From Octopus vulgaris (taxonomy: Eukaryota), in contig OX597814.1 of the NCBI GenBank assembly GCA_951406725.2, positions 70,246,001 to 70,310,000 of the forward strand: a stretch of DNA of 64,000 nucleotides, in the 5' to 3' direction. Below are positions 3,250 through 64,000 of the stretch, piece by piece. A program made the position numbers and the translations under genes. Positions within the stretch are counted from its first letter, which is position 1, and each line of letters starts with the position of its first letter. The notes under the pieces are model-generated. The model was not told the DNA's origin, did no database searches, and worked only from the letters and a program-made list of their open reading frames with translations.

Positions 3250-3703
3250 GGATTAAAAATCTGATAGCTAACATTAGTAATAGGATATCAAATCTATCTT
3301 CTAAACAAATATTTCATGAAGCAGCCCCTTACTATAACAATGCCCTAACTAACAGCTGCTTCAGAGATAAAATATATTACAAATCTTTAAGTAAAAACAG
3401 GAATCATAAAAATTGACCAAGGAAACTAATTCGGTTCAACCCTTCTTTCTCCCTTAATGTTACGGCTAACTTAGGCAAGAATTTCCTGTTTCTTTTAGAT
3501 AAGCATTTTCCATTAAATCATAAATACAGGAAAATTTTTAACAGATGCTCAAAAAGATATACAGCTGCTGCCCCAATATGAAGAACATTATAACTTGCAA
3601 AAATCACCAAGAAACCACTCCCATTTGTAACTGTTGGGACCCTGAAGCTTGCCCACTTGATCAGGTGTGTATGATGAATTCTGTCATATACAAAGCTGCT
3701 GTC
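3250..3703 (+). mobile_element. Penelope-like element fragment (RT C-terminus/linker up to GIY-YIG start)
   Basis: AAPYYNNAL, FNPSFSLNVTANLGKNFL..LDKHFP, YSCCPNMKNII and CNC...CPL...C...VIYKA are typical PLE linker motifs. Confidence 0.8.
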
Positions 3704-11079: not shown

Positions 11080-12030
11080 TAGAATTTATTGATCTAGAGA
11101 TGACCCTTGTCAGAGTATCACACTTTGTAGTCATCAAACTCACTAAGAATATAAATGAATGATATGTGACAACCATACAAGTCATGTACAAAGGTGTTGT
11201 CAGCAAGGTGGCAATTAGCAATGAGTTCAGTAAGGAACGTGCAATTAAGTGTCAATGAAGACTTCATTCTCAGCCCCTTCCTATTTACTATAATTCTCCA
11301 TGCTATAAGGATGCCTAAGTTTAAAAGTGGCTGTCTATAGGAACACCTGTATGCAAAAAACCTAGTAATCAGTCAAAGAATTAGAGGACAAATTCCAAAT
11401 ATGGAATTATGACCTGAAAGTCAAGCTGGCTATACAAAAGTCTTAGCAAGAAAGAACACGGAACCCAACTGCATCTAGAAAGTGGCCATGTTTAACATTC
11501 AGAAAATGCATTGTAAGGAAATCTATACTGTGTACTTGATGTAAATTGAGTGTAAAAAAGGTGCACTGGAATTTAGGCTGACAGAAATGAACTTCACATG
11601 TAGCAGATGCACAAGAAGTTAGCAGTAAGAACACCCATAAAACAAATTATTTCAAATGCTCAGGACAATCATTAGAAATAATTTTTTATGGAAGTGACCT
11701 AATCAATAATGTATAAATAGATGAGTATTGTAAAACCAGATTATCTCTTTTAAGGACAGAGTAAAAAAAGTTCAGAAAAATTACCTGTTGGCAACATAGG
11801 TTTCTCACTATATTTTGCTTGTATAGGAAATGTGATATTACATAGTAATAAAATATGGGCTCTGACTGAGGTCAGTGTGCAAAGGTTTAGCAAAAATGAA
11901 ATCTGCATGTAGGCCTGAACAGTGAAGGAGCTTATGAACACAGACAGAAGAGAAGCTTGATTTCAGGGAGTTCAGTATCACAAAAGGATGACAAGATGCT
12001 GTGCTGGTGCAGATTTCTCCAACCCATGCT
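11080..12030 (+). mobile_element. Old RTE relic
   Basis: Diverged similarity to the RT 3' half at 63570-64000 (gtcagcaaggtg...gagttcagt, ctcagccccttcctattt). Confidence 0.6.
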
Positions 12031-12329
12031 AACATGGAAAAAGTAGATATAAAATGGTAATGATATACATATAGCTTTGTGGGTTATAACTTCAAAAGAG
12101 AAGATATAATACCTAAGTTGAGAACATAAAACATTGATCATGTACTGGGATGGATATAACCTATATAATTTTGCCAGCAATTCCTGGCCTTTTATTTATA
12201 TCAAATAATAATAACAATAAAAATCATTGGATCAGTGATATCAACTAGCTCTTCCACTCAAAATTGCTGGCCTTGTAAAATTAGAAATGCTATTATTATT
12301 ATTATTGCTAGCATTTCTGGCAAACCACA

Positions 12330-12458
12330 CTTAACTTTAGCTTCAGAAAATTTATCAAAAAATTGAGTTTTTTACACTGAAATTCACTGTATTTACATTT
12401 GATAGGGAAGATATCTATATATTTTCAAGGGTGAATAAGCATCGACAGCAAGCAAGCC
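12330..12458 (+). mobile_element. 5' half of an old hammerhead-bearing retrozyme-like element (interrupted)
   Basis: ttttcaaggg, ataagca and cagcaagc (12422-12453) are complementary to 19272-19313. Ends in the 13-mer cagcaagcaagcc. Confidence 0.65.
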
Positions 12459-12824
12459 GAGCATTCCACAGTGGATGTGGAGTAACAATGACAGCTCACG
12501 CAGATTGTACTTAGATAGGGTATCCGTTAGGAAAAGAGATAAGAATACTTTTAGTTGTCCACAGTTTTGTATTGTGCCTTTTACGGATCACAAATTTGTG
12601 ACATGTGAGGTACATTTAAATAAATGTCATAGACAGGGCCCCGGTTACTGGAAGATGAACAAATCCATTTTGACTTGTGAAGCCTTTTGTACCCGGATTA
12701 AGGAGTTAGTACAGAGGGCATTGTAAATATATACATCTCACATTCATCCTTCATATGTTTTATGTTCCTGCATGTCTTTGTATGTCCCCTCTGTAATTAG
12801 GCCTTGTGCCTGTACTAGACAATT
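12459..12824 (+). mobile_element. Short, internally deleted Tx1-like LINE copy (EN fragment plus 3' UTR)
   Basis: 12459-12724 is a diverged copy of 15049-15312 (YLDRV, FTDHKFV). It is followed by a 3' UTR-like tail and tagctagcaagcc (12825-12837). Confidence 0.75.
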
Positions 12825-13096
12825 TAGCTAGCAAGCCAAGCCTTTTCTCTTCAAGTCATTTTGATTGCCACCATTGTTATGTGAGTTTGATTCTGGTTGT
12901 TTCTGTTATTATAATTTGTTGATTGCTGTATTGTCATTTGAACTATTGTCTGTGTGTTAACTGTAGTTTTCGCCCTGCAGGGCCAAAAATACTGTTTAAA
13001 AAATTTTTTGTTGTTGGAATACTTCTTCCAAAAATTATTTTTTGTTTTCCCAGTACTGGGTGTTGTTTTTGTCAATAATGACAAGTAACAAAAAAA

Positions 13097-14500
13097 TGGA
13101 ATTTAATATTAATTCCAGGAAGGACTTCCCTGCAATGGGAAACGACAGTACTACAAAGGATACTGAGGAAAAGACAAGTTTTTTGCCATGGTCTGTGGTA
13201 ATGAGGTTGAAATGGCATTTAAAATGGAGCAATTGTACAGTTTTAGAAACTTAATTAAAAAAAGTGATGTTGAAACCAAGTTAATGCCGCCCCCAGAAAC
13301 AGTGGCGAAAATAAACACCAGAACAGTTGTATACAAAGTATACAGTGTAAAAGAAAAAAAAATGATGGAAGTAAAGAACAAGGTAGTTGAGAGGTGCTTG
13401 GCACCAGTGTGGAACAAAATATGCTACATTGGCCAAGGAATACATAGTGCGACTATGGAAGCACAGTTCCAATCGGCCAATGTAGCTAAGGAAATATCTA
13501 CGAGAACTCTAATAAACAATGAAATTATGCTGCTGCCCACTTATCTAGGCCGCAAAATAGCAAAAATTGTAATTGAAGAAATCCCAGGCGGTACGAAGTG
13601 TTGTGGGCGGCAGCAGCAGTCATTTTTAACATGGAGAATGAAGTAAATATACTGCAGATGACCAAAAAAGACACCGTAAACTGGAAAGGTCAAACACTTC
13701 GATTGGTGGTTCAAACCACCAATGAAACTCTTGAAAGTTTGCCCGACAGAATTTTTGTAGGGGAGGGGCATACAATTTGTATGTCGGTAGAAGGACGTAG
13801 GCCCAGATGCTTTAAGTGTGGGGAAAAGGGCCGCGTTTGCTCTACTTGTACCAAGAAAAAAAAAGAAAATGAAGTCCCTCCCCAAAACACCAGTGAAAGA
13901 AGCAGAAAAACCAAAGAAAACAACAGGAAATGACAAAACAGAAAAAAAGTGAATAAGGATAAAGCTCTGGAAAAAAACGAGGAGATGGAATTTACCCAGG
14001 TTACACACAAAAGAAAAGAAACAAATACCATGGACTCCCCTCCCCAAACCAAAAAATCTTTGCATACAGACAACATTAAAAAAATTCTCCAGCCCCATCC
14101 CAGTGGTACTGTGTTCATTGGAACACATTTTGCCAAACCCCTCATAAATTAGGATAAAAAAGTTAAAAAATGAAAAATTTATTTCATTCGACGCAATAAA
14201 TGAAAGAGTTTTTAGGTATATAAAAGCCCACTACCAAATAAAACTGTTAATAGAACAGCAGACATTCACTTTGCAAAGGTAGGGGAGGAAGCATGGAAGG
14301 ACAAGTTGTTACAGGAACATTTGCAAAACCAAGAAATAAAGGATGCAACACAGAATGTGGTGGAGAGCAAAGTGATTTTTAGCCTGGCAGCCATACCAGT
14401 TCAGAGCCCTGTGAAAAGCCCAGTGGCTATGTCTGCCAAGGAAAGAGAGGGGAAGCAGGCAGACATAAACTGCCATGCATCCTATCAAAACCCTGAGTAG
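13097..14500 (+). pseudogene. Tx1-like ORF1 (gag-like, CCHC knuckle), frameshifted
   Basis: Successive ORF pieces at 13042, 13188, 13598, 13949 and 14306. Confidence 0.75.
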
Positions 14501-14518
14501 GTCATTTTTCCTTCATCG

Positions 14519-17500
14519 ATGATTAAGTTAGGTTGTGTGAATGTGCATGGAATGGGGTCTAAATGGAAAAAGGCTTGTTTCCTGGACAATCTCAGGACAC
14601 ATGGTGTAGATGTGGCTATTGCAACCGAGTCCAAGATGAGTGGACCTCAAGTATTCTCGCCTCTTCTAAATGGTTACGAGAAATATATTTCTCCTAGCTA
14701 AGGAAGGGGAGGAGGCATGGCAGTCTTTATCAAGAAGAGCTTGAACTTACAGTAAGTACTGTTTTTCTGGACCCAGAAGATGAGCTGGTTGTCCTAGATG
14801 TGACACATGTAAATAAGCAGTCCTTCAGGTTGGTAGCTGTCCACGCTCCTAACGAGCATGTTGGGTTTTTTTTGAGACCTGGAGCACTTTCTAGTGATGT
14901 CTAAAATGGTAGTTCTGTGAGGAGACGTTAACACTATCCTAGATGCATAGGTGGATAGTGTTGGCTCGACTGATAGGAAGGGAAATTCTGGCCTCAAGGG
15001 TCCACTAGAGAGCTTTAATCTAGTAGACTGTTACCGATTGGATGAGCTGAGCATTCCACAATGGACGTGGAGTAACAACGATGGCTCACACAGATCATAC
15101 TTAGATAGGGTATTCGTTATGGAAAGAGATAAGAATACTTTTAGTTGTCCACAGTTTTCTATTGTGCCTTACACGGATCACAAATTTGTGACATGTGAGG
15201 TACATTTAGATAAATGTCATAGAAAGAGACCCAGGTACTGGAAGATGAACAAGTCTATTTTGACTTGTGAAGCCTTTTGTACCCGGATTAAGGAGTTAGT
15301 ACAGAGGGCATTATGTGGCACCATCATTAATAATAGGTGGTGGCACACCCTCAAAAGAGCCATCCGTTCAGAGTCCATTAGATTTAGCAGTCAGCTCAGT
15401 TTAGATACGACTAGAATAGAGGGCAATTTAGTTAAGAACCTAGATGAAGCTGTGGAATCTGGCTCTGCATCTAGAGTGCTGGTGGTGAGAATGGTCTTGT
15501 ATCATCACCTCAGTTCCAAGCAGGAAGGTTGCAGAGTTAGAGCTAAGCTATGTGCAGGGAAACGAGGAGGTATTAACATTGCTGGGTGGGCATGTCGTGT
15601 GGAAAGTCAGAGAGGTAAAAATACCTCTATAAAGTCTTTAACTGACGAGCAGGAGCGCAAGATCTATGGACAGGAGGAGATGCAGAATGTCTTTCACCAG
15701 TGTTTCGCCCACTTGTTCGGGGTGGAGGGTGGGGATTTGCCTGAGCGAGGGGAGGCCTTAAAGGACTTCCTAGCTGGTGGGCTGTGACTCGGCACATGAG
15801 GTGGAGTCCTGTGAAGGACCAATCACTCTCGCAGAGGTAAAGGAAGTGTTGGCCGAGTGCGCCGGGGAAAAGTCGCCGGAGCTGGATGGTTTGCCCTATG
15901 AGTTTTATTGTTGCATGCCAGACTTGTTCAGGGATATACTGGCAGGCATCTATACAAACTGGCAACAGAATGGAGGATTCCCAGTTCTGTGAGCTGGGGA
16001 GTGGTGATGCTGGTCCAGAAAGACCCAAGCAAGGGAGATAGTATTAGCAATTACAGGCCCATAACTCTACTTAATGTAGTGTTAAAGATTTTGGCCAAGG
16101 TGTTAGCAAAAAGGTTGACGGCTGTCGTGGAGAAACTTGTAGGGAAGGCACAGACATATGCAATCCCAAGCAGGTCGATTCAGGACAATCTCCACCTTAT
16201 CCGCTACACCTTTGACAGGGTTGGTAAATTACCTGGCAAAGCATTTGATAGGGTAGACCATTGGTACCTGGCAGCAGTCCTCGAAGTGGCTGGTTTGGGC
16301 CTGGGCTTTTGTGGGTGGATCTCCACTATGTACGGCAGTATCAAGTACACAGTCCAGATAAACGGTTACCTGATGGAGCCGTTTTCGATCAAGTGCTCAG
16401 TTCATCAAGGGTGTCCCTTGTCTCTGCTGCTGTACATGTTGGCTCTTGAGCCATTGCTGCAGAAGTTGGAAAAATTGGAAGGCAACCCTAATGAAATCGG
16501 ATGTGGTAAGTCTGTTTCTGCTTTTGTGGATGACATCACCTTCATCGTGTCCAACGTAGTAAAGCTACCTTGTGTAGAAGATGCTATCAGAGGATACGGG
16601 GCGGTGGCAGGAGTAAAAGTTAACAAGGACAAGTCCATCGGCTTGTGCCTTGGCACCTGGAGGAGCAAGTTGATATCGTCCAGTGTTGTGGGTCACTGGA
16701 CAGATGGTCCTATTAAGTTGTTTGGAGTTTGGGTTGGACCGGACTCCCAGACGGAGAAGAATTGAAATGAGGTGGCAGACAAGGTGGAGGCACTAGTCTG
16801 GACTTGGTCCGGAAGGGCTCTGTCCTTGAAAGGAAAGGCAGAGGTGGTACAGATGTTTATTGCATCTGTAATTCCCTACTACCTGACCATTGTCCCTTGT
16901 CCCAATTCGTGGCTAAACAAGTTGGAACGACTCCTTTTCTGCTTTTTGTGGAAGGGAGGAAAGCCACTTCTGAGGCACGCTGTTTGCTGCCAGGAACCAT
17001 TAAAGGGTGGGTTAGGAATGCCTTGGCTAAGGATGCGCAGACATGTGTTGAGGCTGAGGCATCTCTGGCACCACCTGGAAGGTGATAAGGTGTGGAGTCT
17101 GCTGGCAGAGGGATTCTTCCCGCGACCAACCTCTGTCGAGAGATTTAAACCCTGTTTCCTAAAAAGACGTAATCTGACTGTATGGCAAAAGGAGTGACAA
17201 CAGACACTCATGCTTATCCACAAGACGGGCAAGGCTGGCAGTGGGAATACCACCTCAGTGTTCTATAGAGGGCTGGTAGAGTACAAAAATGATGACATCC
17301 TAGGAGGGGCTCTGGGCGTCGACGAGAACCAACTTGCCAACCTGTTTCATAGGACTGTTGGGCCAGGATATTTGGATAATTACCAAAAATCCCAAGCCTG
17401 GCAGTGTTACAGGAATGCTCTACCTGTTTGCGAAAAGTTATCCAGGCACGGAATGTCAGTGCCACCAATATGCCCAAGATGTGGGCTGGACGACAATTGA

Positions 17501-17828
17501 TAAGTTACATTGAACACATGTTGTCACATCTGGAGGAGTACAGCTATTGGCTGGATCTATAATAAAGACGGTACCGCCAGCTGGACTCTCAAAGGAAGGT
17601 GAGGCATATTTTCTCTGTATGGTTTCAGTATTGAAGGAGTGTGTATGGAGATCTAGATTGGAAGGTATCATGACAGAGCCCTTTGTCTCTGACCCCAGGT
17701 TGCTCACTTACTTCAGGTACCATCTGAAAAGCAAGATGGGGTTGGAGAGGAAAACCCTGTTGCAGAGCATGTATGAAAAACAATGGAAGGATGTGAAGAG
17801 AAAGGTGGGTGTTAGTAACCCAACTTAA
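14519..17828 (+). pseudogene. Tx1-like ORF2 (APE endonuclease + reverse transcriptase), frameshifted
   Basis: ORF pieces at 14519, 14951, 15777, 15908, 16772, 17210 and 17547 are colinear with an L1/Tx1 ORF2. Confidence 0.9.
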
Positions 17829-17872
17829 TCATCAATGAAGGAAGAAATAGATAATCACTGGGCCTTACAGGC

Positions 17873-19038
17873 TGCCGGCAATTCCTGGCCTTTTATTTAT
17901 ATCAAATAATAATAACAATAAAAATCATTGGATCAGTGATATCAACTAGCTCTTCCACTCAAAATTGCTGGCCTTGTAAAATTAGAAATGCTATTATTAT
18001 TATTATTGCTAGCATTTCTGGCAAACCACACTTAACTTTAGCTTCAGAAAATTTATCAAAAAATTGAGTTTTTTACACTGAAATTCACTGTATTTACATT
18101 TGATAGGGGAGATATCTATATATTTTCAAGGGTGAATAAGCATCGACAGCAAGCAAGCCGAGCATTCCACAGTGGATGTGGAGTAACAATGACAGCTCAC
18201 ACAGATTGTACTTAGATAGGGTATCCGTTAGGAAAAGAGATAAGAATACTTTTAGTTGTCCACAGTTTTGTATTGTGCCTTTTACGGATCACAAATTTGT
18301 GACATGTGAGGTACATTTAAATAAATGTCATAGACAGGGCCCCGGTTACTGGAAGATGAACAAATCCATTTTGACTTGTGACGCCTTTTGTACCCGGATT
18401 AAGGAGTTAGTACAGAGGGCATTGTAAATATATACATCTCACATTCATCCTTCATATGTTTTATGTTCCTGCATGTCTTTGTATGTCCCCTCTGTAATTA
18501 GGCCTTGTGCCTGTACTAGACAATTTAGCTAGCAAGCCAAGCCTTTTCTCTTCAAGTCATTTTGATTGCCACCATTGTTATGTGAGTTTGATTCTGGTTG
18601 TTTCTGTTATTATAATTTGTTGATTGCTGTATTGTCATTTGAACTATTGTCTGTGTGTTAACTGTAGTTTTCGCCCTGCAGGGCCAAAAATACTGTTTAA
18701 AAAATTTTGTTGTTGGAATACTTCTTCCAAAAATTATTTTTTGTTTTCCCAGTACTGGGTGTTGTTTTTGTCAATAATGACAAGTAACAAAAAAATGGAA
18801 TTTAATATTAATTCCAAGAAGGACTTCCCTGCAATGGGAAACGACAGTACTACAAAGGATACTGAGGAAAAGACAAGTTTTTTGCCATGGTCTGTGGTAA
18901 TGAGGTTGAAATGGCCTCTGTTGCAGAGCATGTATGAAAAACAATGGAAGGATGTGAAGAGAAAGGTGGGTGATAATAACCCAACTTAATCATCAATGAA
19001 GGAAGAAATAGATAATCACTGGGCCTTACAGGCTGCCG
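17873..19038 (+). repeat. Tandem duplicate of 12172-17878 with a ~4.5-kb internal deletion
   Basis: 17873-18915 matches 12172-13216 and 18916-19038 matches 17756-17878, with only a few SNPs. Junction microhomology tgcc(a/g)g. Confidence 0.9.
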
Positions 19039-19209
19039 GGTGCGTTCCCTCTGTTTTGTTTTAAAAACAAAAGTCAAAATTAAATTGTATATAGTTGAAA
19101 TTCAAATTTTTAAAATGTCTATACGAACTCATCATAACATCTTTATGTATTTGTAATGTCTTGTAATGTCCCCATCTGTGTAAGATTTTTATAATCATGA
19201 TAAAAAATT
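19039..19209 (+). mobile_element. Tx1-like element 3' UTR
   Basis: Follows the ORF2 end. atgtcttgtaatgtccccatctgt resembles the tail of the short copy. Followed by cagctagcaagcc (19210-19222). Confidence 0.7.
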
Positions 19210-19222
19210 CAGCTAGCAAGCC

Positions 19223-19430
19223 ATGCTACTCCAGACTGATGATGAGCAATGACTGAAACTAATCTCTGGATGCTCGCTTTGCTGGGTGGAAGTGCTTATC
19301 TCCCCTTTGAAAACATAAGGACACAGAAAATGTGTCATGGCCAACTGGAAATAGTGTTTCCTAGGGCTAAATAGCAGCATTCTTCCCTTTCATGGGACTG
19401 CCACATTAAGTTGGCAACATAACATCACCT
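19223..19430 (+). mobile_element. 3' half of the old retrozyme-like element
   Basis: Shares TGCTACTC, ATAAGGACACAG, AAAATGTGTCA and TTCCTAGGGCTA, in the same order, with the repeat at 28128-28290. Confidence 0.75.
19230..19270 (+). ncRNA. Type I hammerhead ribozyme (degenerate)
   Basis: Stem I uccaga/ucugga, core CUGAUGA (19236-19242), GAAA (19255-19258), triplet AUC (C17 at 19264). Stems II and III are degraded. Confidence 0.7.
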
Positions 19431-19699
19431 TATCATGCTGCTACTGTATAAATCACTCTAGTTTTTAAAATGCAATATTTCTATTGTTATTCTTAATTAG
19501 TTTTCCTCTTTTCAAGGTTGCTTTAGTACATTTTACTAAGCCAAATGTCATATTTATTCCTTTAGTAAACTCATGCACTGTTTCTAGTTGTTTATCTGTA
19601 GCAATACTTCCAGTTGTTTATCATTTGCACCTTACAGTATCAACCATACTACCTGTTTTACCATAGTAGTTGTATCTATGTCCAGTTCTGTTTAACATA

Positions 19700-20399: not shown

Positions 20400-21447
20400 A
20401 GTTTGTTGTGTTTCATTATTTACTTTTTGTTGCATGTGTTATCTCTATCTTCATGTTTTACGTTCTCATTATTTATATTAGTTCCAGGTATTCTAAGGGC
20501 ACTATTTGTATTTTTGTGATGTATTTTTCCTTTTAAATGCTCTGTTTCATTTCCATTCTGAGGATATATCTCTTTATGTTAGCTAGTTTATTGGGGTTCA
20601 TCGAAGTAGTCAGATTAGTGTTAGCTAGTTTATTAAGGTTTCTTTAATGACTTGATTTAGCTAGTTTATTAGGGTTCATCTATCCAATCTAGGTAGTTTA
20701 TTGGGGGCTGCTGCTGCTGGTGGCAGCTGCGGCAGAGGCAGCGGTGGTGGTGGTGTATTTACTTCCTGTGAATTAAGGTGGTGCTTTCTTTTCAAGTCTC
20801 AAAAACTTTACACTGACTTCTTGCACTATCAAATAATACTGTTTTCTGGATGTGATCTATTTTTTCCAACTAATTTTTAATTTCTTTGCTCAATGTACTT
20901 GGGTCACCAACAGTTATTGGCACAGTACAAACCTTCTGCATCAACCATACTTTTTTTCTTTCTTTCTTCAGAGATCCATAACTCATCAGTTGTTCTTTTT
21001 TATGACTCTCCTGTTCCCAGGGCAAGCAATGTCTCTGATCAAGCATGAGAGTCTACCAGTGCAATATCAGGATTCTGGTGTTCAATTCTATGATTTCATT
21101 GGCTCATGAAGTCATAAAGTATTTTTGCTCTGCTGTTTTCTACCACACCCTTTGGCTTATTTTTACACCATTTTCTTGCTTTTCCGATCCAAACTTGTTA
21201 CATAGTTCCCAGTGAACAATTCTGGTGACATCATCATGCCTTCTCTTGTATCTGCTATGGGCTAATTTGTTGCATTCACTTAAAATATGACACACTGTCT
21301 CTCCAGCTTTACCATACATTCTGCATTTGTCAGATTCTGTTAAATGATCAATTCTGTGCTCGATGTGGTTTGTTCTGAATGCTTGTTTTTGCATTGCACA
21401 TGTCAAGGTCTCTGTTTGAGGTTTCAGTTTGATTGTTTTTGTAACCA
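20400..21447 (-). mobile_element. R4/Dong-clade LINE C-terminus (CCHC finger and restriction-like endonuclease), split by an RTE insertion
   Basis: LKPQTETL...Q.QAFRTN...CRMYGKAGETVCHILSEC...YKRRHDDV...HWELC. Continues at 24868-25215. Confidence 0.7.
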
Positions 21448-24400
21448 CATCATCATCATCATCATTTAACGTCCGTTCTCCATGCTAGCATGGGTTGGAC
21501 GGTTCGACCGGGGATCTGGGAAGCCAGAAGGCTGCACCAGGCTCCGGTCTTATCTGGTAATGTTTCTACAGCTGGATGCCCTTCCTAACGCCAACCACTC
21601 CGTGAGTGTAGTGGGTGCTTTTTACGTGCCACCTGCACTGGTGCCAGGCGAGGCTGGCATCGGCCACGGTCGGATTGGTGCATTTTACGTGCCACCTGCA
21701 CGGAAGCCAGTCGAGGTGGCACTGGCTTCGGCCACGATTCGGATGGTGCTTTTTACGTGCCACCGACACGGAAGCCAGTCAAGGCGGCACTGGCATCGGC
21801 CACGATTCGGATAGTGCTTTTTACGTATCTCAAGTCCAGGGGTCCTGGCATCTGCCGGATGCCAGTCATAGGATTGGTTCAATTTCGATTCCGATTTCAC
21901 TTGCCCCAACAGGTCTTCGCAAGCAAAGGAGGCATAGGTTGCCTGTCATCGGATGAGGTTCAATATCGACTTCGCTTGCCTCAACAGGTCTTTGTGTGTC
22001 CAAGGGAGGAAAGGCATGCATAAGTAGGCTGGACTCACTTGTCCTGCCTGGTCTTTTCACGCACAGCATATTTCCAAAGGTCTCGGTCGCTGGTCATTTC
22101 CTCAGTGAGACCTAAAGTTCAAAGGTCATGCTTCACCACCTTGTCCCAAGTTTTCCTGGGTCTCCCTCTTCCATGGGTTCCCTCCACTGCTAGGGATTGG
22201 CACTTTTTCACACACCTATCTTCATCCATTCTCGCCACATGACCATACCAGCGCAATCGTCTCTCTTGCACACCACAACTGATGCTCCTTAGGTCCAACA
22301 TTTCTCTCAGGATACTAACGCTCTGTCGAGCATGCACACTGACATTACACATCCATTGGAGCATACTGGCTTCATTTCTCATGAGCTTACGCATGTCCTC
22401 AGCAGTCATGGCCCATGTTTCACTGCCATGTAGCATGGCTGTTCGTACACATGCATCATACAGTCTGCCTTTTACTCTGAGCGAGAGGCCTTTAGTCACC
22501 AGCAGAGGTAAGAGCTCCCTAAACTTTGCCCAGGCTATTCTTACTCTAGCCGTTACACTTTCAGCACACCCACCCCCACTACTGACTTGGTCACCAAGAT
22601 AACGGAAGCTATCAACTACTTCTAGTTTTTTCCCCTGGTAAGTGACAGAAGTTGTTTTCTGCAGATTTTCAGAGGTTAATGCTCCCGAGCATCTGCCACA
22701 TACAAAAACCATCTTCCTAGTTAGCCTTCCTTTGACATTGCTGCACCTCTTATGTGTCCATAGCTTACACTTGGTGCATCTTATAGAGTTTCTACCTACA
22801 CCTTTTCTACAGATTGAGCAGGGCCATCTACCTGAAGGCGTTTGTGATTTGTCTACCTTCCTACTTATTAGGACTTTGGTTTTAGCTAGATTGACTCTAA
22901 GGCCCTTCGATTCTAATCCTTGCTTCCACACCTAAAACTTCTCCTCCAGTTCTGATAGTGACTCAGCAATTAGAGCAAGGTCATCAGCATAGAGGATCTC
23001 CCAGGGGCATCCTGTCTTGAATTCCTCCGTTATAAATAGGAGGGGGCTGAGGACTGAGCCTTGGTGGACCCCTACCTCTACCCGGAATTCTTCACTGTAC
23101 TCATTGCCAACCCTCACCTTACTAGCAGCGTCCCTGTACATGGCTCGCACAGCTTTCACTAACCATTCATCTATCCCTAGTTTCCTCATTGACCACCAGA
23201 TAAGGGATCGGGGGACCCTGTCGAAGGCTTTCTCCATGTCAACAAAAGCCAGGTACAGGGGCTTATCTTTGGCTAGGTATTTCTCCTGCAGCTGCCTTAC
23301 CAGGAATATAGCATCAGTGGTACTTTTCCCTGGCACGAACCCAAACTGCATCTCATCTAAACTAACTCTCTCTCTAATTAGTTGGGTTATGACCCTCTCT
23401 GTAACCTTCATCACCTGATCCAACAGCTTGATACCTCTGTAATTATTTGTATCTAGGGCATCACCTTTACCTTTGTAGCAGTTGACTATTATGCTGCTAC
23501 ACCAGTCATTGGGTATGACTCCTTCATGTATCACCTGATTAACTATACGGGTGACTAGGCTATAGCCGACACTACCAGATATTTTGAGCATCTCTGCAGT
23601 GATACCTGATGGGCCTGGGGCTTTCCCTGTCTTCATGCTTCTAATTGCCTTATCTACCAAGGAACTATCAACTCTGATAGCTGGTCCCTCTGTTGGGTCA
23701 ACATTCGGCAGACTCTCTTTATCCCATTCATTTTCTTTATTCAGCAACCTTTCATAGTGGCGTCTCCCTTTTAGCAGTTTGATACAATACCCTGCTACCA
23801 CCATTCTTCCAGTGCCTCCAAGTCTGTCTCTTTTCTCTAATAGCCATGTCTACAACACTGTTCCACCACCACGTTACCTTGGGACGAGAGGGGACTTTGC
23901 ACCAGCCACAGATCTGGTCAGTGGCTCTCAGCAGGTTGTCCCTTAGATGCTATTTGGATCTATGTTTCTTGGTATCTCTCTCAAAAACTGATCATACATC
24001 ATCTTATACTTCCAGTTGTTTTCCTCCTCATCTTTGCATCCTCAATTAGCACAAGTGAACCATCTTCCATGCGAACACACTTCTCTCCTACCACATCACA
24101 ATTCTCTCTCACACACTGTCTTGCAATGCGAAACACCTCCAGTCTTTGGTCCTCACAGTGCAGAACATTGGCAAATTTTTTCTTATCTGCTTCCCCTCTG
24201 GCTAGATAGACCTGTCTCCTAGCTTCCCTTTTAGCAGTTTGATACAATACCCTGCTACCACCATTCTTCCAGTGCCTCCAAGTCTGTCTCTTTTCTCTAA
24301 TAGCCATGTCTACAACACTGTTCCACCACCACGTTACCTTGGGACGAGAGGGGACTTTGCACCAGCCACAGATCTGGTCAGTGGCTCTCAGCAGGTTGTC

Positions 24401-24867
24401 CCTTAGATGCTATTTGGATCTATGTTTCTTGGTATCTCTCTCAAAAACTGATCATACATCATCTTATACTTCCAGTTGTTTTCCTCCTCATCTTTGCATC
24501 CTCAATTAGCACAAGTGAACCATCTTCCATGCGAACACACTTCTCTCCTACCACATCACAATTCTCTCTCACACACTGTCTTGCAATGCGAAACACCTCC
24601 AGTCTTTGGTCCTCACAGCGCAGAACATTGGCAAATTTTTTCTTATCTGCTTCCCCTCTGGCTAGATAGACCTGTCTCCTAGCTTCCCTTTTAGCAGTTT
24701 GATACAATACCCTGCTACCACCATTCTTCCAGTGCCTCCAAGTCTGTCTCTTTTCTCTAATAGCCATGTCTACAACACTGTTCCACCACCACGTTACCTT
24801 GGGACGAGAGGGGACTTTGCACCAGCCACAGATCTGGTCAGTGGCTCTCAGCAGGTTGTCCCTTAGA
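21448..24867 (-). mobile_element. Young 5'-truncated RTE-clade LINE with (GAT)n tail
   Basis: RT motifs NYRGIKLL, QFGFVPGKSTTDAIF, FVDMEKAFDRVP, GVHQGSVLSP and YADD, a Cys-rich insert, HGSETW and RGRPRKTW. (CAT)n at 21448-21465. Confidence 0.95.
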
Positions 24868-24951
24868 TGCTATTTGGATCTATGTTTCTTGGTATCTCTC
24901 TCAAAAACTGATCATACATCATCTTATACTTCCAGTTGTTTTCCTCCTCAT
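23765..24951. repeat. 460-bp tandem repeat, about 2.6 near-identical units
   Basis: Identical ORFs start at 23846, 24306 and 24766. Each unit contains the RTE/R4 junction. Confidence 0.95.
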
Positions 24952-28676: not shown

Positions 28677-31600
28677 CTAGCAGAGTTACCCGGCGTAGAC
28701 TTTTCTGTTATATTTTCTGTAATGAACTGGAATACCTATGTTTCGAATTTCATCAAAATTGCAGATGAGGGTTTTTTCCCTCTTTAAACACTCAAGCAAA
28801 ATTGTAATTGGGCCACATGTATCCCATGCTACTGATTTTTATGCGCATATTCCAAAATTCCAGTCTTATAGAACCTGTTAAAAGATTTTGCTCCTGAAAA
28901 ATGGAGGTCATGGAGCTCTAAAATGTGAGAGTTAACATACCTATTGGGGGTGGGCATCTTAATGTCAACCAGAGAAGTTGAATTGTTGAGAATCTTTTTA
29001 ACTTGGGTCTTATATCTATTGTTTGAATTTCTTTGAAATAGGAAATATATGTTCACTGGGTTTGTAAAAGAGAGCAAAGCTACAGGAAATCAAAAGACAA
29101 ATAAGCAGTCAGTTACCCTACCCTAGTCATTACCACTCCCAATGTAAGATTTTTCACCATCCAGGTGACAGGCACAGCCGTAAGATGCATTACGAATCTA
29201 TAGCAATTAGAAGGGCATGACCCAACTGAAATAAACATTAACAACTGTGTGACGTGAGGGCTAAGGGGAAATGAAAGTGTCACCTCTGGAGTTTGCAAAT
29301 GACCACTATACTGATATGTAACTGGACAGAATAAATTTACAATCTATAAATGTCTTTGAATAACCAGTCACTCATCTGGGAAGGCCTTGAAATCAATGTT
29401 ACCGTCTGGGGACTATGTGTGATCCAGTGATAATAAAAAGACTGAAAGGAGGTCTGCAATCAAATAACTTTACTCAACACTTTGCAACTGAATCAGTGGA
29501 GGCAAAGATGCCTCTCATTTACTTGACAATTTATGCACCAGATTGCAGAAATCACAATGTAAGTGTATGTCAAAGCAAACTGTTACACTGTTGTAGCATT
29601 GAATTACAAATAATGCTCATCTTTTATGCTCAGGTAACCCTACAGCTTCCAAGAGCACAACTGTATTCATTTTTGCTTAGATAAAATGACAAAATTGTGA
29701 GTGTCAAGTCCCCATGGAGGGGTCTTTCTGACTGTAAGATGATGAAATTTTATAAATGTTACTTCATTTGTGTCTAATATCTATGGTTAAAATTTCATCA
29801 ACAGCAAAAATATATGAATTGTCATCTATCTATCTATCCATATATATATATATATATCATCATCATCATCATCATTTAGTGTCCGCTTTCCATGCTAGCA
29901 TGGGTTGGACGGTTCAACTGGGGTCTGTGAAGCCAGAAGGCTGCATCAGGCCCAGTCTCATCTGGTAGTGTTTCTACGGCTGGATGCCCTTCCTAACGCC
30001 AACCACTCCGTGAGTGTAATGGGTGCTTTTTACGTGCCACCCGCACAGGTGCCAGACGGAGCTGGCAAATGGCCACGAATGGATGGTGCTTTTTACGTGC
30101 CACCGGCATGAGGCCAGTCGGGGCGGCGCTGGCAACAGCCACAAACGGATGGTGGTGCCAGACGAGTCTGGCAAACGGCCATGAATGGATGGTGCTTTTT
30201 TACGTGCCACCAGCACGGGGGCTAGGTGAGGCTGGCAACGGCCACGAACGGATGGTGCTTTTTACGTGCCACCGGCACGAGGCCAGTCTGGACGGCGCTG
30301 GCAACGGCCACATTCGGATGGTTCTCTTACGTGCCACCGGCACTGGTAACTCAGCTGCAATTTCCATTGATCGATTTCGATTCTGATCCTCACTTGCCTC
30401 AACAGGTCTTCACAAGTAGAGTTTTGTGTCCCTAGAAGGGAAGGTATGCATAAGTGGGCTGGCTTCATCCCATGTAGAAGGCCACGGGTTATGGTCTCAC
30501 TTGTCCTGCCGGGTCTTCTCGCGCACAGCATACTTCCAGAGGTCTCGGTCTATAGTCATTTCCTCAGTGAGACCTAAAGTTCAAAGGTCGTGCTTCACCA
30601 CCTCATCCCAGGTTTTCCTCGGTCTGCCTCTTCCACAGGTTCCCTCAACCGCTAGGGTGTGCCATTTTTCACACAACTATCTTCATCCATTCTCGCCACA
30701 TGCCCATACCAGCGCAAATGTCTCTCTTGCACACCACAACTGATGCTTCTTAGGTCCAGCTTTTCTCTCAAGGTACTTACACTCTGTCGAGTATGAGTAC
30801 TGACATTACACATCCATCGGAGCATACTGGCTTCATTTCTTGTGAGCTTACGCATATCCTCAGCAGTCACGGCCCATGTTTCACTGCCATGTAGCATGGC
30901 TGTTCGTACACACACGTCATACAGTCTGCCTTTCACTCTGAGCGAGAGGCCTTTTGTCACCAGCAGAGGTAAGAGCTCTCTGAACTTTGCCCAAGCTATT
31001 CTTACTCTACCAGTTACACTTTCAGCACACCCACCCCCGCTGCTGACTTGGTCATCTAGGTAACGGAAGCTATCAACTATTTCTAGTTTTTCTCCCTGGA
31101 AAGTGACAGAAGTTGGTCTCAGAGCATTTTCAGTGTTTATTGTTCCTGAGCATCTGCCACATACAAAAACCATCTTCCTAGTTAGCCTTCCTTTGACATT
31201 GCTGCACCTGTTATGTGTCCATAGCTTACACTGGGTACATCTTAAAGGTCATCAGCATAGAGGAGCTCCCAAGGGCATCCTGTCTTGAATTCCTCCGTTA
31301 TTGCCTGGAGGACTATGATAAATAGGAGGGGGCTGAGGACTGAGCCTTGGTGGACCCCTACCTCTACCCGGAATTCTTCACTGTACTTGTTGCCAACCCT
31401 CACCTTACTAGCAGCATCCCTGTACATGGCTCGCACAGCTCTCACTAACCATTCATCTATCCCTAGTTTCCTCATTGACCACCAGATAAGGGATCGGGGG
31501 ACCCTGTCGAAGGCTTTCTCCATGTCAACAAAAGCCAGGTACAGGGGCTTATCTTTGGCTAGGTATTTCTCCTGCAGCTGTCTTACCAGGAATATAGCAT

Positions 31601-32238
31601 CAGTGGTACTTTTCCCTGGCACGAACCCAAACTGCATCTCATCTAAACTAACTCTCTCTCTAATTAGTTGGGCTATAGCCGACACTACCAGATATTTTGA
31701 GCATCTCTGCAGTGATTCTTGATGGGCCTGGGGCTTTCCTTGTCTTCATGCTTCTAATTGCCTTAACTACCAAGGAACTATCAACTCGGATATCTGGTCC
31801 CTCTGTTGGGTCAACATTCGGCAGACTCTCTTTATCCCATTCATTTTCTTTATTCAGCAACCTTTCATAGTGGCGTCTCCAAACCTCTCTCTTTGCATCC
31901 TCATTTAGCGCAAGTGAACCATCTTCCATGCGAACACACTTCTCTCCTACCACATCACAATTCTCTCTCACACATTGTCTTGCAACGCGAAACACCTCCA
32001 GTCTTTGATCCTCACGGCGCAGAACATTGGCAAATTTTTTCTTATCTGCTTCCCCTCTGGCTAGATAGTCCTGTCTCCTATCTTCCCTTTTGGCAGTTAC
32101 CCTAATGGGGGTCTTCTACTCCCAAAATGCATAGAATATAATTTCCAAATTTCATAAAGATCCATTCAGTACTTTTGACCTAGTTTTGCATCATAAAAGA
32201 AATTACTGAAATTTGGGAGTAGAAGGCCCCCATTAGGG

Positions 32239-36004: not shown

Positions 36005-38585
36005 TCATCATCATCATTATCATCGTTTAGCATCCGTTTTCCATGCTAGCATGGGTTGGATGGTTCGACCGGGGTCTGGGAAGCCAGGAGGCTGCACCAG
36101 GCTCCAGTCTGATCTGGCAGTGTTTCTACTGCTGGATGCCCTTCCTAACACCAACCACTCCATGAGTGTAGTGGGTGCTTTTTACATGCCACCGGCACAG
36201 GAGCCAGAGGTGGCTGGCAAATGGCCACAATTGGTTGGTGCTTTTACGTGTCACTGATACGGATGCCAGTCAGGCAGTGCTGGCATCTGCCATGTTCGGA
36301 CAATGCTTTTAATGTGTCACCAGCACGGGTATCTTAACTACAATTTCCATTTGATTTTCATTTTGATGATGTTGTTGACGTACTTAACTCAATAGGTCTC
36401 CTCAAGAACAGCAGGTCACTCTACGAGCCAAGGTTAGCACAGCAGGCCATCCTGCAAGCCATGAACTCACTTCATTTGTCGGGTCTTCACAGTCACAGCA
36501 TATCTCAGAGGTCTCAGTCTTTGCCGTTTCCTCTGTGAGGCCCTACGTGCCACTGGCACGGGTATCACAACTACAATATTCATATGATTTTTATTTTGAT
36601 GTTGATGTACTTGACACAATAGGTCTCCTCAAGTACAGCACGCCGTCCTGCAAGCCATGAACTCACTTCATTTGTTGGGTCTTTCGAAGTCACATCATAT
36701 CTCCAGAGGTCTCGGTCTTTCATTATAGCCTCTGTGAAGCTCAACGTATGAAAGTCATGCTTGACCACCTTGTCCCATGTCTTCCTGGGTCTACCTCTAT
36801 CCTGGATTCCTTCAACAGTTTGGGAGTAGCACTTCTTCACACATCTCTGCTCATCCATCTGTAGTACATGACCATACCAATGCAAACATCTCTCCTGCAC
36901 GCTGCATCCGATGCTTCTTATGCCCAACATTTCTATCAGGGCGTTTACACTCTATCGTGCATGGACACTGACATTACACATCCAACAGATCATGCTAGCT
37001 TCATTTGTTTTGAGCCTACGCATGCCCTCTGCTGTCACAGACCATGTTTCACTGCCGTGAAGCATGGCAGTTTGCACACATTTGTTGTACAATCTGCCTT
37101 TCACTCTGAGCGAGAAACCCTTTGTCACCAGTAGGGAAAGAAGCTTCCTAAACTTTGCCCAGGCTATTCTTATTCTAGTAACACTCTCTGAGCATCCACC
37201 CCCACTACTAACTTGGTCACCTAGGTAGCAGAAACAATCAACTACTTCTAGCTTCTCTCCCAGGAGTGTAACGGAATCTGTTTTCTGAGTATCAATGGTG
37301 TCTATTGCTTCTGTGCATCTGCCGCACATGAAAGCTATCTTCTCGGTTAATTTTCCTTTGATGTTGCTGCACCTCTTATGTATCCATAGCTTACACTGGG
37401 TACATCTTATGGAGTTTCTACCTACACCTTTTCTACGATCGAGCAGCTTACTAGAACTTTGGTCTTTGCAACATTTACTCTAAGGCCTTTTGATTCTAAA
37501 CCTAGCTTCCACACATGAAATTTCTTCTCTAATTCCAGTAGTGATTCTGCTACAGTAGTGATTATGCTAGGTCATCAGCATAGAGGAGTTCCCAGGGGCA
37601 ACCGATCTTGAATTGCTCTGTTATTGCCTGGAGGACTATGATGAATAGAAGGGGACTGAGGGCTGAGCCTTGGTGGATGACAACTTCTACCCGGAATTCT
37701 TTACTGTATTCATTGCCAATCTTAACCTTACTAACAGTCTCTCTGTAAAGGGCCTGTACAGCCCTTATTAACCATTCATCAATCTCCAGTTTCCACATAG
37801 CCCACCAGATAAGGGATCGGGGTACCCTGTGAAAGGCTTTCTCCAAGTCCACGAAAGCTAAGTATAGGGGTTTATCTTTGGCTAGGTATTTCTCCTGCAG
37901 TTGTCAAACCAGGAATATGGCATCAGTGGTGCTTCTACCCGGCACAAAACCGAACTGCATCTCATCTATGCAGACTCTCTCTCCCTGATGAGATGGACTA
38001 TGACCCTCTCCATGACCTTCATTACCTGATCCAGCAGTTTGATACCCCTGTAGTTATTTCTATCTAGAGCATCACCTTTACCCTTGTAGCAGTTGACTAT
38101 GGTGCTGCTACGCCAGTCATTGGGTATGACTCCGTCATGAACTTCCTGGTTTACAATGCGGGTGACTAGGCTGTAGCCCACACCGCCAGATGTTTTAAAC
38201 ATCTCAGCTGTGATTCTTGATAGGCTGGGGGCTTTTCCTGGCTTCATACCCTTAATTGCTTTGTCTACTAGAGAGCTATCTATACGGAGAGCTGGTCCCT
38301 CTACTGGGTCAACACTTGGTAGGCTCTCCTTCTCCCATTCATTCTCCACATTCAGCAGTCTTTCATAGTGGCTTCTCCAAGCCTCTTTCTTTTCAGAATC
38401 ACTAAAAGCAAGTGCACCAGCATCCATTCGAACACATTTCTCTCCTGTGACATTACAATTTTCTCTCACACACTGTCTTGCAATCCGAAATACCTCCCTT
38501 CTTCGGTCCTCACATCTCTGGACATTGGCAAAATTCTTTTTTTCTGCTTCGCACTTGGCTATGTATACCTGCTGCCCAGCCTCTC
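36005..38585 (-). mobile_element. RTE-clade LINE (older subfamily) with a duplicated 3' UTR segment
   Basis: NYRGIKLLDQ, DLEKAF, YADD and HGSETW. (CAT)n tail at 36005. 36320-36540 resembles 36547-36740. Confidence 0.9.
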
Positions 38586-38596
38586 TTCTCTATGTA

Positions 38597-54134: not shown

Positions 54135-55406
54135 TATCAGGTCATCCCATAAGGTCTGTCCGATTTTACCTTTTTTAAAATTGAATGAAATTTAATAGTA
54201 TTTTAGAATGTCTAATGGGATTAAAATTATTTTTATACATTTGTATAGATTTAAACTAATTAAATATTATTTTACAGAATAATAGAATTAAAATTTCTTT
54301 GATTAAAACCCTTTCTAACATGGAAGTATCCAAAGAGCATTTGATGCACATAATGCTTTATGAGTACAAAAAAGGAAACTCTGCAGCCAAAGTGACTCGA
54401 AACATACACTCAGTTTATGGGAAAGAATGCTTGAATGAAAGAACTTGCAGAAGATGTTTTGCAAAATTCAGAAGTGGAGATTTCAACATTGGAGATGAAG
54501 ATCGAACAGGATGTCCAGTTGAGTTTAATGAGAAGCTCCTTGAAGCATTACTTGAAGAAAATCCTGCATTATCAGTTGAAGAATTGGCAATTAAGCTTAG
54601 TTCAAACCATACAATTTGGAAAGGTTCCTAAACTTGGAAAATGGGTGCCTCATGAATTGTCCAAAAGTAACCACAAATCCCGAGATGGCATCTTCTCTTC
54701 TCTCCATTCTCGTGAACTCATTTCACCCTTTTTGGATAGACTTGTGACTGGTAACGAAAAATGGATCTTCTATCGAAATATTAAACATTGTAAACAGTGG
54801 CTTGGTAAAAGGGAAAAAGTTCAATCACAACCAAGAAGGGAACTTCATGAGAAAAAGGATTCTTCTCTCTATCTGGAGGGATTGCAAAGGAGTAATTCAC
54901 TTTGAATTGTTACCACCTAATGCAACAATCAGCGCTCAAGTCTACTGTCAGCAATTAGAGCATTTGAACCAAGCTTTAATAAAAAAAAAAGACCCACTTT
55001 AGTGAATCGAAAAGGAGTGATGTTTCATCAGGACAATGCGCAACCCCATACTGCAAAGATCACATCACAGAAGATCAAAGAGCTTGGTTGGGAAAAAAAT
55101 TTTTCATCCACCTTATTCTCCTGACTTTGCTCCTTCAGACTACCATTTGTTTTGTAGTTTATAGAATCATTTGGGGGACATAACTTTCACAAACCAGGAG
55201 AAGATCGAAACTGACATTTCAGAGTTCTTCACTTTGAAACCAAAAGAGTTTTACATTGATGGGATTAAAAAGCTTGTAAATAGATGGAAGGAAGTCATAG
55301 ATAATCAGGAAAAGTACACCGATGATTAAATTTCAATTAAATATCACATTTGATCACTTGTTTTCTTTATTCAAAATTCAGACAGAACTTATGAGATGAC
55401 CTGATA
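54135..55406 (+). mobile_element. Full-length mariner transposon (defective DD34D transposase)
   Basis: TIRs tatcaggtcatcccataaggtctgtc / gacagaacttatgagatgacctgata. WVPHEL, VTGNEKW, HQDNAQPH and YSPDFAPSDY. Frameshifted. Confidence 0.93.
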
Positions 55407-61741: not shown

Positions 61742-62055
61742 TTTTAATTATATATTATTATTAATATTAGGAAATCAATATCAAAACTCCTCAGAAAGAT
61801 ATACACGTGTGAAAAATAATTGTTGTATTAAAAATATATAAATAAATAAATATAAATAGGTATAAAAATATATGTAAATATGTATAAGCATAAATAGATA
61901 ATGTATATGACAGTTTAAAAGTTTTGAATTAATTATTTAAAGCATCTTACAATTGTTTCACAGAAGAGTTGTCCCTATAGAGTGATACTTACAAATAGAT
62001 ACATAGATAAACTGATAAGAATTATTTGACTATAAATTGTATATTAAATAAAGAT

Positions 62056-64000
62056 TGTTCTATGACACTCTACTGCAGACTACCTCGTTGACGAACGACA
62101 GAGACCTTCTCTTTGTGGCTGGTGACTTCAATGGTCACGTTGGACGACATGCTGGGGGCTTCCATGGCGTACATGGAGGCTATGGCTCTGGTTCCCGCAA
62201 CGAGGAGGGAACCAGGCTGCTGGAGTTCTGCGATGCAAATAATCTTATGATTTGCAACACTAACTTCAGGAAACCTACCAGCCACCTAGTCACCTACCGA
62301 TCGGGCCAACATACCAGCCAAATTGACTACATCCTTGCCAGGCAAAGGGAGAGATGGCTACTTATAAATGCCAAAACCTTCCCAGGCAAAGAATGTACCC
62401 CACAACATAGACTGGTAGTTAATGACTTTAGGATCAGGAGTAGGAGGACAACCAGAAGATGACCAACATGGAGAAGAAGGATCTGGAAGCTTAAGGATCC
62501 TGTGAATGGACAGAGATTTAGAGACATGTTACTTGAAGCCTTTGACGAAGTAGAAGGGGATAGAGTATCACATGGGGTAGAGGACAACTGGACGTTTCTA
62601 AGGGACAACCTGCTGAGAGCCACTGACCAGATCTGTGGCTGGTGCAAAGTCCCCTCTCGTCCCAAGGTAACGTGGTGGTGGAACAGTGTCGTAGACAGGG
62701 CTATTAGAGAAAAGAGACAGACTTGGAAGCACTGGAAGAATGGTGGTAGCAGGGAATTGTATCAGACTGCTAAAAGGGAAGCTAGGAGACAGGTCTATCT
62801 AGCCAGAGGGGAAGCAGATAAGAAAAAATTTGCCAATGTTCTGCGCCGTGAGGACCAAAGACTGGAGGTGTTTCGCGTTGCAAGACAGTGTGTGAGAGAG
62901 AATTGTGATGTGGTGGGAGAGAAGTGTGTTCGCATGGAAGATGGTTCACTTGCGCTAAACGAGGATGCAAAGAGAGAGGCTTGGAGACGCCACTATGAAA
63001 GGTTGCTGAATAAAGAAAATGAATGGGATAAAGAGAGTCTGCCGAACGTTGACCCAACAGAGGGACCAGCTATCAGGGTTGATAGTTCCTTAGTAGCTAA
63101 GGCAATTAGAAGCATGAAGACAGGGAAAGCCCCAGGCCCATCAGGTATCACTGCAGAGATGCTCAAAATATCTGGTAGTGTCGGCTATAGCCTAGTCACC
63201 TGTATAGTTAATCAGGTGATACATGAAGGAGTCATACCCAATGACTAGTGTAGCAGCATAATAGTCAACTGCTACAAAGGTAAAGGTGATGCCCTAGATA
63301 CAAATAATTACAGAGGTATCAAGATGTTGGTTCAGGTGATGAAGGTTACAGAGAGGGTCATAAGCCAACTAATTAGAGAGAGAGTTAGTTTAGATGAGAT
63401 GAAGTTTGGTTTCGTGCCAGGGAAAAGTACCACTGATGCTATAGTCTTGGTAAGGCAGCTGCAGGAGAAATACCTAGCCAAAGATAAGCCCCTGTACCTG
63501 GCTTTTGTTGACATGGAGAAAGCCTTCGACAGGGTCCCTCAATCCCTCATATGGTGGTCAATGAGGAAACTAGGAATAGATGAATGGTTAGTGAGAGCTG
63601 TGCAAGCCATGTACAGGGACGCTGCTAGTAAGGTGAGGGTTTGCAATGAGTACAGTGAAGAATTCCGGGTAGAGGTAGGGGTCCACCAAGGCTCAGTACT
63701 CAGCCCCCTCCTATTTATCATAGTCCTCCAGGCAATAACGGAGGAATTCAAGACAGGATGCCCCTGGCAGCTCCTCTATGCTGATGACCTTGCTCTAATT
63801 GCTGAGTCATTATCAGAACTGGAGAAGAAGTTTCAGGTGTGGAAGCATGGTTTAGAATCGAAGGGCCTTAGAGTCAACCTAGCTAAAACCAAAGTCCTAA
63901 TAAGTAGGAAGGTAGACAAATCACAAACGCCTTCAGGTAGATGGCCCTGCTCGATCTGTAGAAAAGGTGTAGGTAGAAACTCTATAAGATGCACCAAGTG
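62056..64000 (+). mobile_element. Young RTE-clade LINE (APE and RT, runs off the window)
   Basis: GDFNGHVG, SQIDYIL, PQHRLVV, NYRGI, KAFDRVP, QGSVLSP and YADD. In-frame stops at 62460 and 63246. Confidence 0.95.

Follow-up and report, generated by a model that had tools for sequence, protein, structure and literature searches.

LINE insertions in hammerhead repeats and at position +1 of U1 and U2 genes in Octopus vulgaris

Two copies of a long interspersed nuclear element (LINE), here called A and B, stand at one site directly before a predicted hammerhead ribozyme in the 64,000-nt stretch of the Octopus vulgaris genome analysed here (assembly GCA_951406725.2, contig OX597814.1, positions 70,246,001 to 70,310,000 of the forward strand; hereafter the window). 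The locus raises the question of what such elements recognise when they choose a target. A first-pass annotation of the window proposed that the family parasitises a ribozyme-bearing repeat. Its site specificity within multicopy hammerhead repeats held up, as the 13-mer flanking the copies is part of the target, unoccupied sites are present, and target-site duplications (TSDs) of their own flank truncated copies. The role of the ribozyme as the feature that defines the target did not, because nearly identical copies lie at position +1 of U2 genes and relatives at +1 of U1, where there is no hammerhead. We think it probable that the clade homes on the starts of promoters of the small nuclear RNA (snRNA) type, which carry a proximal sequence element (PSE), that a filter of about four nucleotides narrows the choice, and that the inserted copy then captures the promoter; the parts of this reading that we infer are promoter activity, the tether and what supplies the filter.

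The window copy has a match to RVT_1, and the nearest named homologue of the reverse transcriptase (RT) region comes from Argonauta hians (63%). An intact, young relative of subfamily Y (L121:1182-6538; G000:C15:61.02 Mb) encodes an open reading frame (ORF) 1 of 493 aa and an ORF2 of 1132 aa, with zf-CCHC and with Exo_endo_phos, RVT_1 and zf-RVT domains, and matches human L1 ORF2p (E 4e-66) better than R2 (4e-23). The predicted proteins place the element in the L1/Tx1 group of LINEs, with CCHC motifs in ORF1 and an ORF2 that combines an N-terminal apurinic/apyrimidinic endonuclease-like domain (APE), an RT and a C-terminal zinc motif and has no RNase H. We assign it provisionally to Tx1, on the basis of its architecture and target specificity. 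The 3' junctions of the clade are precise and lack poly(A), and its TSDs are 14-17 nt long. According to the Kojima criterion, a target-specific LINE has more than 20% of its flanks in one target, a fixed junction, a TSD and independent truncated copies (PMC4494074). With 20 of 20 ends of subfamily Y on target, and 28 of 30 ends of a subfamily Z (described below) on target or in tandem with another copy, the clade classifies as target-specific in this sense.

We catalogued 95 3' ends of the clade, most of them retrieved with element DNA as the query and a few with the repeat, which does not amount to an unbiased census. Labels based on the leader sequences assigned 20 ends to HY, 15 to H1, seven to H2, four each to H3 and H4, two each to H6 and H1b, one each to H5 and H7, two to U1 and 37 to a class called "other". 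In at least 11 families of hammerhead repeats the clade occupies the same homologous position, in addition to the first base of U1 and U2 genes, and independent 5'-truncated copies are found among the insertions. The target type is scattered on both the 3'-end tree, from which 20 of the 95 ends were omitted as too short, and the APE tree (32 rows). The earlier expectation that most family copies would run on as cagctagcaagcc-atgctac...CTGATGA failed, since none of the 28 other loci with the 3' end of copy B did so. Read by eye, five of these continue with the cagctagcaagcc leader followed by another Tx1 copy, one with the leader of another family and a Tx1 copy, ten lie before other hammerhead families, nine have unrelated flanks and three have no aligned end.

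Rfam detected no hammerhead when the window and 12 loci were searched, and the hammerheads were called by a purpose-made strict descriptor and a covariation count in its place. The hammerhead core is kept across 11 families. Stem I pairs in 58 of 66 cells from these families (shuffle mean 34.8, with 0 of 10000 shuffles reaching this value) and stem II in 34 of 44 cells, a value reached by 88 of 10000 shuffles. The target repeats fit the structure expected of non-LTR (long terminal repeat) retrozymes, namely tandem non-coding units of 170-400 nt with a type I hammerhead in each. Animal non-LTR retrozymes are built of tandem units of ~360 nt that lack an ORF and contain a single minimal type I hammerhead (PMC7229834; bioRxiv 10.64898/2026.07.22.740005), which is the same unit structure as in the targets here, whose self-cleavage is only predicted. 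The parts of these two papers that were covered mention neither LINE targeting nor an snRNA-type promoter within the unit, and do not deal with where transcription of retrozymes begins.

The element could be thought to recognise the hammerhead itself, or the hairpin or cruciform that it caps. The strong pairing of stem I is in line with this, as is the strict core located 22-42 nt downstream of 29 of the 95 ends, as compared with 4 of 3000 random windows. However, the distance from the insertion site to the core varies from 25 to ~33 nt and the distance to an upstream motif is constant, and neither U1 nor U2 has a hammerhead. Recognition of the ribozyme is thus extremely improbable.

One clade copy is located exactly at U1 +1 (Rfam score of 125 bits), corresponding to 1 of 30 U1 loci, and clade copies are located at U2 +1 in 2 of 20 U2 loci, where they are full length, have a TSD of 14 nt and lie behind two different classes of U2 promoter. 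Clusters of U1 and U2 genes at G000:C18:48.97-49.21 Mb, C3:20.77-20.84 Mb and C23:43.31 Mb contain several promoter classes, which have only an ATCAGT core in common. A search with the U2-inserted copy collected a subfamily, Z, with 30 ends (90-100% identity, read by eye). Five of these are at U2 +1, 20 are before three further hammerhead families that all start with ATCG, three are before another Tx1 copy and two are off-target; the hammerhead descriptor was positive in 13 of 18 refetched non-U2 ends. The closest Z copies at U2 and at the hammerhead families H8/H9 are ~99% identical, although their targets share just ~4-5 nt past +1.

The shared feature of these sites lies upstream. A matrix trained on 10 U1/U2 upstream regions only describes a motif whose ATCAGT core was recovered between -56 and -61 in all 12 snRNA genes that had been held out. 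Relative to the first TSD base, the matrix peaks at -61 to -55 in 77 of 85 HY, 14 of 25 H1, 3 of 4 H2, 1 of 2 H3 and 3 of 7 H4 sites, against a background of 150 in 3000 random windows (5%), and the motif is placed at -57 to -60 in 12 of 13 retrozyme 5' junctions of subfamily Z. It is shared at -57 to -60 by the U1, U2, H1, HY, H2, H8, H9 and H10 sites. From its position before U1 and U2, we take this motif to be a PSE. A fixed distance to a promoter element across unrelated targets is what marks position-specific elements of the Ty3/TRE5 type, and these sites show such a spacing. As a separate observation, two clade copies (3' flanks of L106 and L039/L237) share the target CATTTTAAACTTGAAG in another repeat, which has no promoter motif.

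The full-length copies also carry a record of where they have been, since their leader corresponds to the first 14-17 nt of the previous target. Behind the U2 TSD, the U2-inserted copies retain 14 nt from the start of the H9 repeat, with one mismatch, and a copy at a non-U1 site (L203) carries U1 nt 1-17, of which its 3' flank shares only ATACTT. The copies are therefore likely to have been transcribed from the +1 position of the previous target, and the fossil leaders appear to point to the places where retrozymes start transcription.

A more explicit model, which we put forward tentatively and rate slightly short of an even chance, is that the LINE docks on the snRNA machinery (SNAPc or the pre-initiation complex), inserts at +1 and steals the promoter, while a short stretch of read-through RNA serves as an address that can be switched and by which the element hops among U1, U2 and at least 11 retrozyme families. 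In the broader reading that we think probable, the ribonucleoprotein would be brought to the promoter-bound complex or to the opened start site, and the endonuclease would nick between -1 and +1. A match of ~4 nt (ATCG, ATAC, AGCT or RGAAG) would select the promoter, probably by pairing with read-through target RNA at the 3' end of the element. A second cut 14-17 nt downstream would give the order promoter, leader, element and gene, after which the inserted copy would be transcribed from the captured promoter, and the snRNA gene or retrozyme unit would lose it. Retrozymes would be the usual host because they provide thousands of dispensable promoters of the snRNA type. The hammerhead may trim the read-through RNA and would not itself be the address.

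The leaders also bear on a model without a protein tether, in which nicking is weakly specific, read-through target RNA at both ends of the transcript steers daughter copies to the target of the parent, and selection for expressed copies produces the +1 pattern. Leaders derived from former targets would be expected in this case, as would exact junctions without poly(A), off-target sites that echo the first 4 nt of the subfamily target (as in the ATAC group) and the fidelity of subfamily Y to one family at 20 of 20 ends, and co-transcription with target RNA can strengthen specific integration (PMC4494074). The model does not account well for copies of ~99% identity at both U2 and H8/H9 with only ~4-5 nt in common past +1, nor for the finding that the jumps between U1, U2 and retrozymes are all at +1, although insertion anywhere within a transcribed tandem unit should yield an expressed copy. 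We regard it as unlikely, while giving it some weight.

Subfamily Y keeps to a single site, where each of its 20 ends with ≥98% identity (16 loci) is found with a 17-nt TSD, and the copies are 98-100% identical, so the family has been active recently. One copy truncated at nt 3308 has a perfect 17-nt TSD and is inserted in an older retrozyme haplotype, and Y also includes a 69-nt copy and element-TSD-element tandems. Judged from these structures, the Y insertions are independent target-primed events. Copying of the donor flank into the new site was considered and was not seen, and the downstream units match the host array in most Y loci. The sisters of Y (87-97% identical) are at ATAC-like sites, one of them exactly at U1 +1 within a real U1 promoter.

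The classical explanation for Tx1 elements is that the endonuclease of each subfamily reads the sequence of its site and evolves rapidly. Target choice has been attributed mainly to the endonuclease (PMC4494074), the subfamilies have short consensus preferences, and their endonucleases do differ (74-86% aa for Z and Y), those of Y and L203, the copy with the U1 leader, at ~11 of 235 aa (counted by eye). However, a 4-nt consensus cannot yield 20 of 20 or 28 of 30 on-target ends in a genome of 2.8 Gb, and target type is scattered on the APE tree. A hairpin loop plays a role in the specificity of the L1 endonuclease (PMC1950540). The loop predicted for the clade, mapped onto this hairpin by our own alignment, is identical between elements that target GGAAG and ATAC; Y and L203 have 97% identical APE DNA, the same predicted specificity loop and unrelated target sequences. 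Sequence reading by the endonuclease alone is therefore quite improbable.

It may also be asked whether a few insertions were spread as cargo of the retrozymes by Penelope-type machinery. At C14:42.98 Mb (L210) a truncated Y copy is joined to an inverted retrozyme arm of a different haplotype, and at C1:162.62 Mb (L137) the unit behind the Y copy is unlike its array and ends at the typical array end. These mixed-haplotype loci, and the rough covariation between the ages of Y copies and retrozyme haplotypes, would fit such a process. Several observations refute it as the main route, in which role we find it very improbable: truncated copies have a TSD of their own, elements stand in tandem with a TSD between them, a young Y copy lies in a retrozyme haplotype that is older, filled and empty units are mixed within one arm, and U1 and U2 carry insertions. 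It is retained as a minor route.

ORFs with a GIY-YIG domain are plentiful in the genome (6136 candidates). An autonomous Penelope partner was not found, as among the matches listed for 20 GIY-YIG loci no flanking terminal repeat matched six target families, save for one antisense HY-like copy. Many near-identical open frames of 781 aa (L369, L374 and others) have a C-terminal GIY-YIG domain and are Penelope-like. Downstream of one of them are tandem repeats of ~65 nt with GATGACGTC, in which the descriptor detected no hammerhead.

Several observations weigh against homing on promoter starts. The 37 of 95 ends labelled "other" are off-target, so that targeting is leaky or has been lost in some lineages, and of the 17 such sites whose 5' flank is known, just one has the motif in place. 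The left flank in the window itself has no good motif, the motif was not seen among the pattern hits for H1b (0 of 5) and H6 (0 of 6), which are mostly spurious matches, and no empty site was obtained for H5 and H7. The HY and Z sites are related copies, which inflates their counts and means that they are not independent observations. Since the retrozyme families are homologous, the shared position could be inherited among them, leaving only the U1 and U2 jumps as independent. The decay of the ORFs resolved no age order among the copies in tandem arrays, and one or two Y loci look as if they had travelled as cargo, possibly through Penelope-type machinery.

Insertion into U2 or into other transposons has been described for several families of Tx1 elements (PMC4494074, PMC4640811, PMC8869645). 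Keno and Utopia insert before U2 nt 39, and in 2015 only Keno, Utopia, Dada-U1 and Dada-U6 were listed as targeting snRNA genes (PMC4640811). Keno, a member of the Tx1 clade, is likewise an APE-type LINE with U2 gene targets (PMC4640811, PMC4494074). In contrast to Keno and Utopia, the present clade inserts before nt 1 of U2 and U1, lies mostly in hammerhead repeats and switches target within a subfamily, and it is not classified as Keno. Xenopus Tx1L in Tx1D and the crocodilian Tx1-Mar, Tx1-8_Crp, Tx1-4_AMi and Tx1-9_AMi are also LINEs in multicopy transposon targets, and transcription from flanking DNA has been proposed for these Tx1L and crocodilian Tx1 elements (PMC4494074). These elements insert into DNA transposons or LTR elements, a choice attributed to the target sequence, whereas here ribozyme repeats and snRNA genes are united by a position behind a promoter motif.

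Position-specific insertion at promoters, set by promoter-bound factors, is known from other systems. The yeast element Ty3 integrates within 1-4 nt of the RNA polymerase (Pol) III start via TFIIIB, and the L1-clade LINE TRE5-A of Dictyostelium is positioned by contact between ORF1 and TFIIIB, with TRE5 elements 44-54 bp upstream and antisense (PMC5911963). The clade described here resembles both in its position at promoters. It differs in that Ty3 and TRE5-A are found at Pol III/tRNA promoters, whereas the promoters here are of the snRNA type, the insertions are in sense orientation at +1, the promoter is captured and a tether is only inferred. The literature covered contained no LINE with retrozymes or snRNA +1 as its target; it did not extend to Repbase, subscription papers or supplements, where such a family could be described.

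Target specificity in LINEs is commonly ascribed to an endonuclease that recognises a single conserved sequence. In the present clade, almost identical elements are inserted in sequences that are unrelated and have in common only their place behind a promoter motif of the snRNA type. The clade offers a testable natural case of target choice and target switching in LINEs, possibly an animal counterpart, at Pol II snRNA promoters, of the tethering of Ty3/TRE5. It adds the ribozyme-bearing retrozymes to the target classes of LINEs, as a parasite of a parasite, and if the model is true, animal retrozymes carry their own snRNA-type promoter. The young intact members make the model directly testable, with a bearing on LINE-based targeted gene insertion.

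The window locus is a decayed and rearranged example of these insertions, with the following features:

12410-12445, plus strand: left half of the H1 hammerhead repeat; the promoter-like motif is degraded here, with the best score not at -58
12446-12462, plus strand: 5' copy of the ~17-nt target duplication, the last nucleotides being shared with copy A by microhomology
12459-12824, plus strand: copy A, of another subfamily, 5'-truncated and internally deleted, with an endonuclease-linker fragment to 12722 followed by the 3' tail
12825-12841, plus strand: 17-nt target copy or 5' leader between copies A and B, AAGC variant
12842-17878, plus strand: decayed body of copy B, with ORF1 remnants at ~13167-13933 and ORF2 from the ATG at 14519 (APE, RT at 15902-16765, C-terminus to 17828)
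17873-18915, plus strand: duplicate (99.3%) of 12172-13216, comprising flank, TSD, copy A, leader and the 5' end of B, with extra motifs at 18148 and 18527
18918-19209, plus strand: 3' end of B after a 4.5-kb deletion, comprising a duplicate of 17757-17878 and the 3' untranslated region; terminates ATAAAAAATT, without poly(A)
19210-19226, plus strand: 3' copy of the target duplication CAGCTAGCAAGCCATGC; the repeat's transcription start is predicted at ~19211
19230-19270, plus strand: minimal type I hammerhead, a damaged copy, with stem I TCCAGA/TCTGGA, CTGATGA at 19236, GAAA at 19255 and predicted cleavage after TC at 19264
19227-19488, plus strand: right part of the H1 retrozyme-like repeat, 89-92% identical to the best copies among 3047 candidates

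The order along the locus is thus flank, TSD, A, leader and B body, followed by the repeated flank, TSD, A, leader and B 5' end, which the 4.5-kb deletion fuses to the B 3' end, and then TSD and hammerhead. Contigs from public sequencing runs span both new junctions (X16, 17802-18263; X17 and X18, 18486-19239), which rules out that the duplication is an assembly error, with the proviso that X16 may derive from the assembled sample itself; that X17 and X18 do not cover B is given no weight. The first-pass annotation had overlooked the duplication and the deletion, owing to which copy B does not extend to 19209 as a single uninterrupted full-length element. The annotation correctly placed the target motif at three positions, as the 12-mer AGCWAGCAAGCC is found at 12447, 12826 and 19211, and missed two of its five occurrences (18148 and 18527), which arise because 12172-13216 is repeated at 17873-18915 and 17757-17878 at 18918-19039. 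The duplicated target is ~17 nt long rather than 13 nt, and what was described as a stuttered aagcc is really the AAGC variant of its last 4 nt. This AAGC in the leader of B, where the host has ATGC, may be a fossil of the leader of a previous target. Copies A and B were rightly seen as different, A being 91% identical to B (15045-15312) over 268 nt and having a tail that is 91% like that of L066. The sequence of B has accumulated 21 stops and 4 frameshifts over 1566 aligned codons.

Rejoining 12330-12458 to 19223-19430, as had been suggested, brings back the long stem, in which 12422 pairs with 19313 (folding z = -2.6 for the whole join and -3.2 for the core), although similarity to empty sites starts only at ~12410. 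The core was also found where it had been described, 13 nt past the 13-mer. The assigned type I hammerhead has its core and stem I in place, and this copy is damaged, having lost 2 nt of stem II that are kept in 21 of 27 other copies and the palindromic GAAACTAGTC of stem III, a palindrome present in 19 of the 27. In most H1 copies the first stem II pair is U-U, with T at this position in 26 of 27.

In the 2.8-Gb genome there are 3047 candidate copies of the right flank. At 29 other best H1 loci (27 distinct regions) the site is mostly uninterrupted, and a Tx1-like copy is present at the site in three regions. Empty-site copies, which had been predicted, are thus abundant among the best repeat loci, and their 13-mer rules out that it is the element's own 3' end. 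The H1 arrays are mostly partial or inverted. HY, a younger relative of the H1 repeat, forms tandem and head-to-head arrays of 362-nt units with fixed ends. The arms of these arrays diverge from a central junction and end at unit position ~237 or ~300, both following CTATTATT, and the HY hammerhead (e.g. L162:1576-1937) has a U3-A8 core variant (TTGAAAA).

Elsewhere in the window, four 20-nt direct repeats, TTAGCTAGTTTATT(G/A)GGG, are spaced at 32-42 nt in 20577-20706, and a second copy of 23844-24209 lies at 24304-24669. Several decayed elements with an RT, of a different and presumably RTE-like LINE type, are located at 22119-24869, 30652-32115, 36580-38589 and 62052-63248, and 54260-54905 presumably represents a mariner-like transposase remnant. 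At 11808, three public runs have an 18-nt insertion relative to the window.

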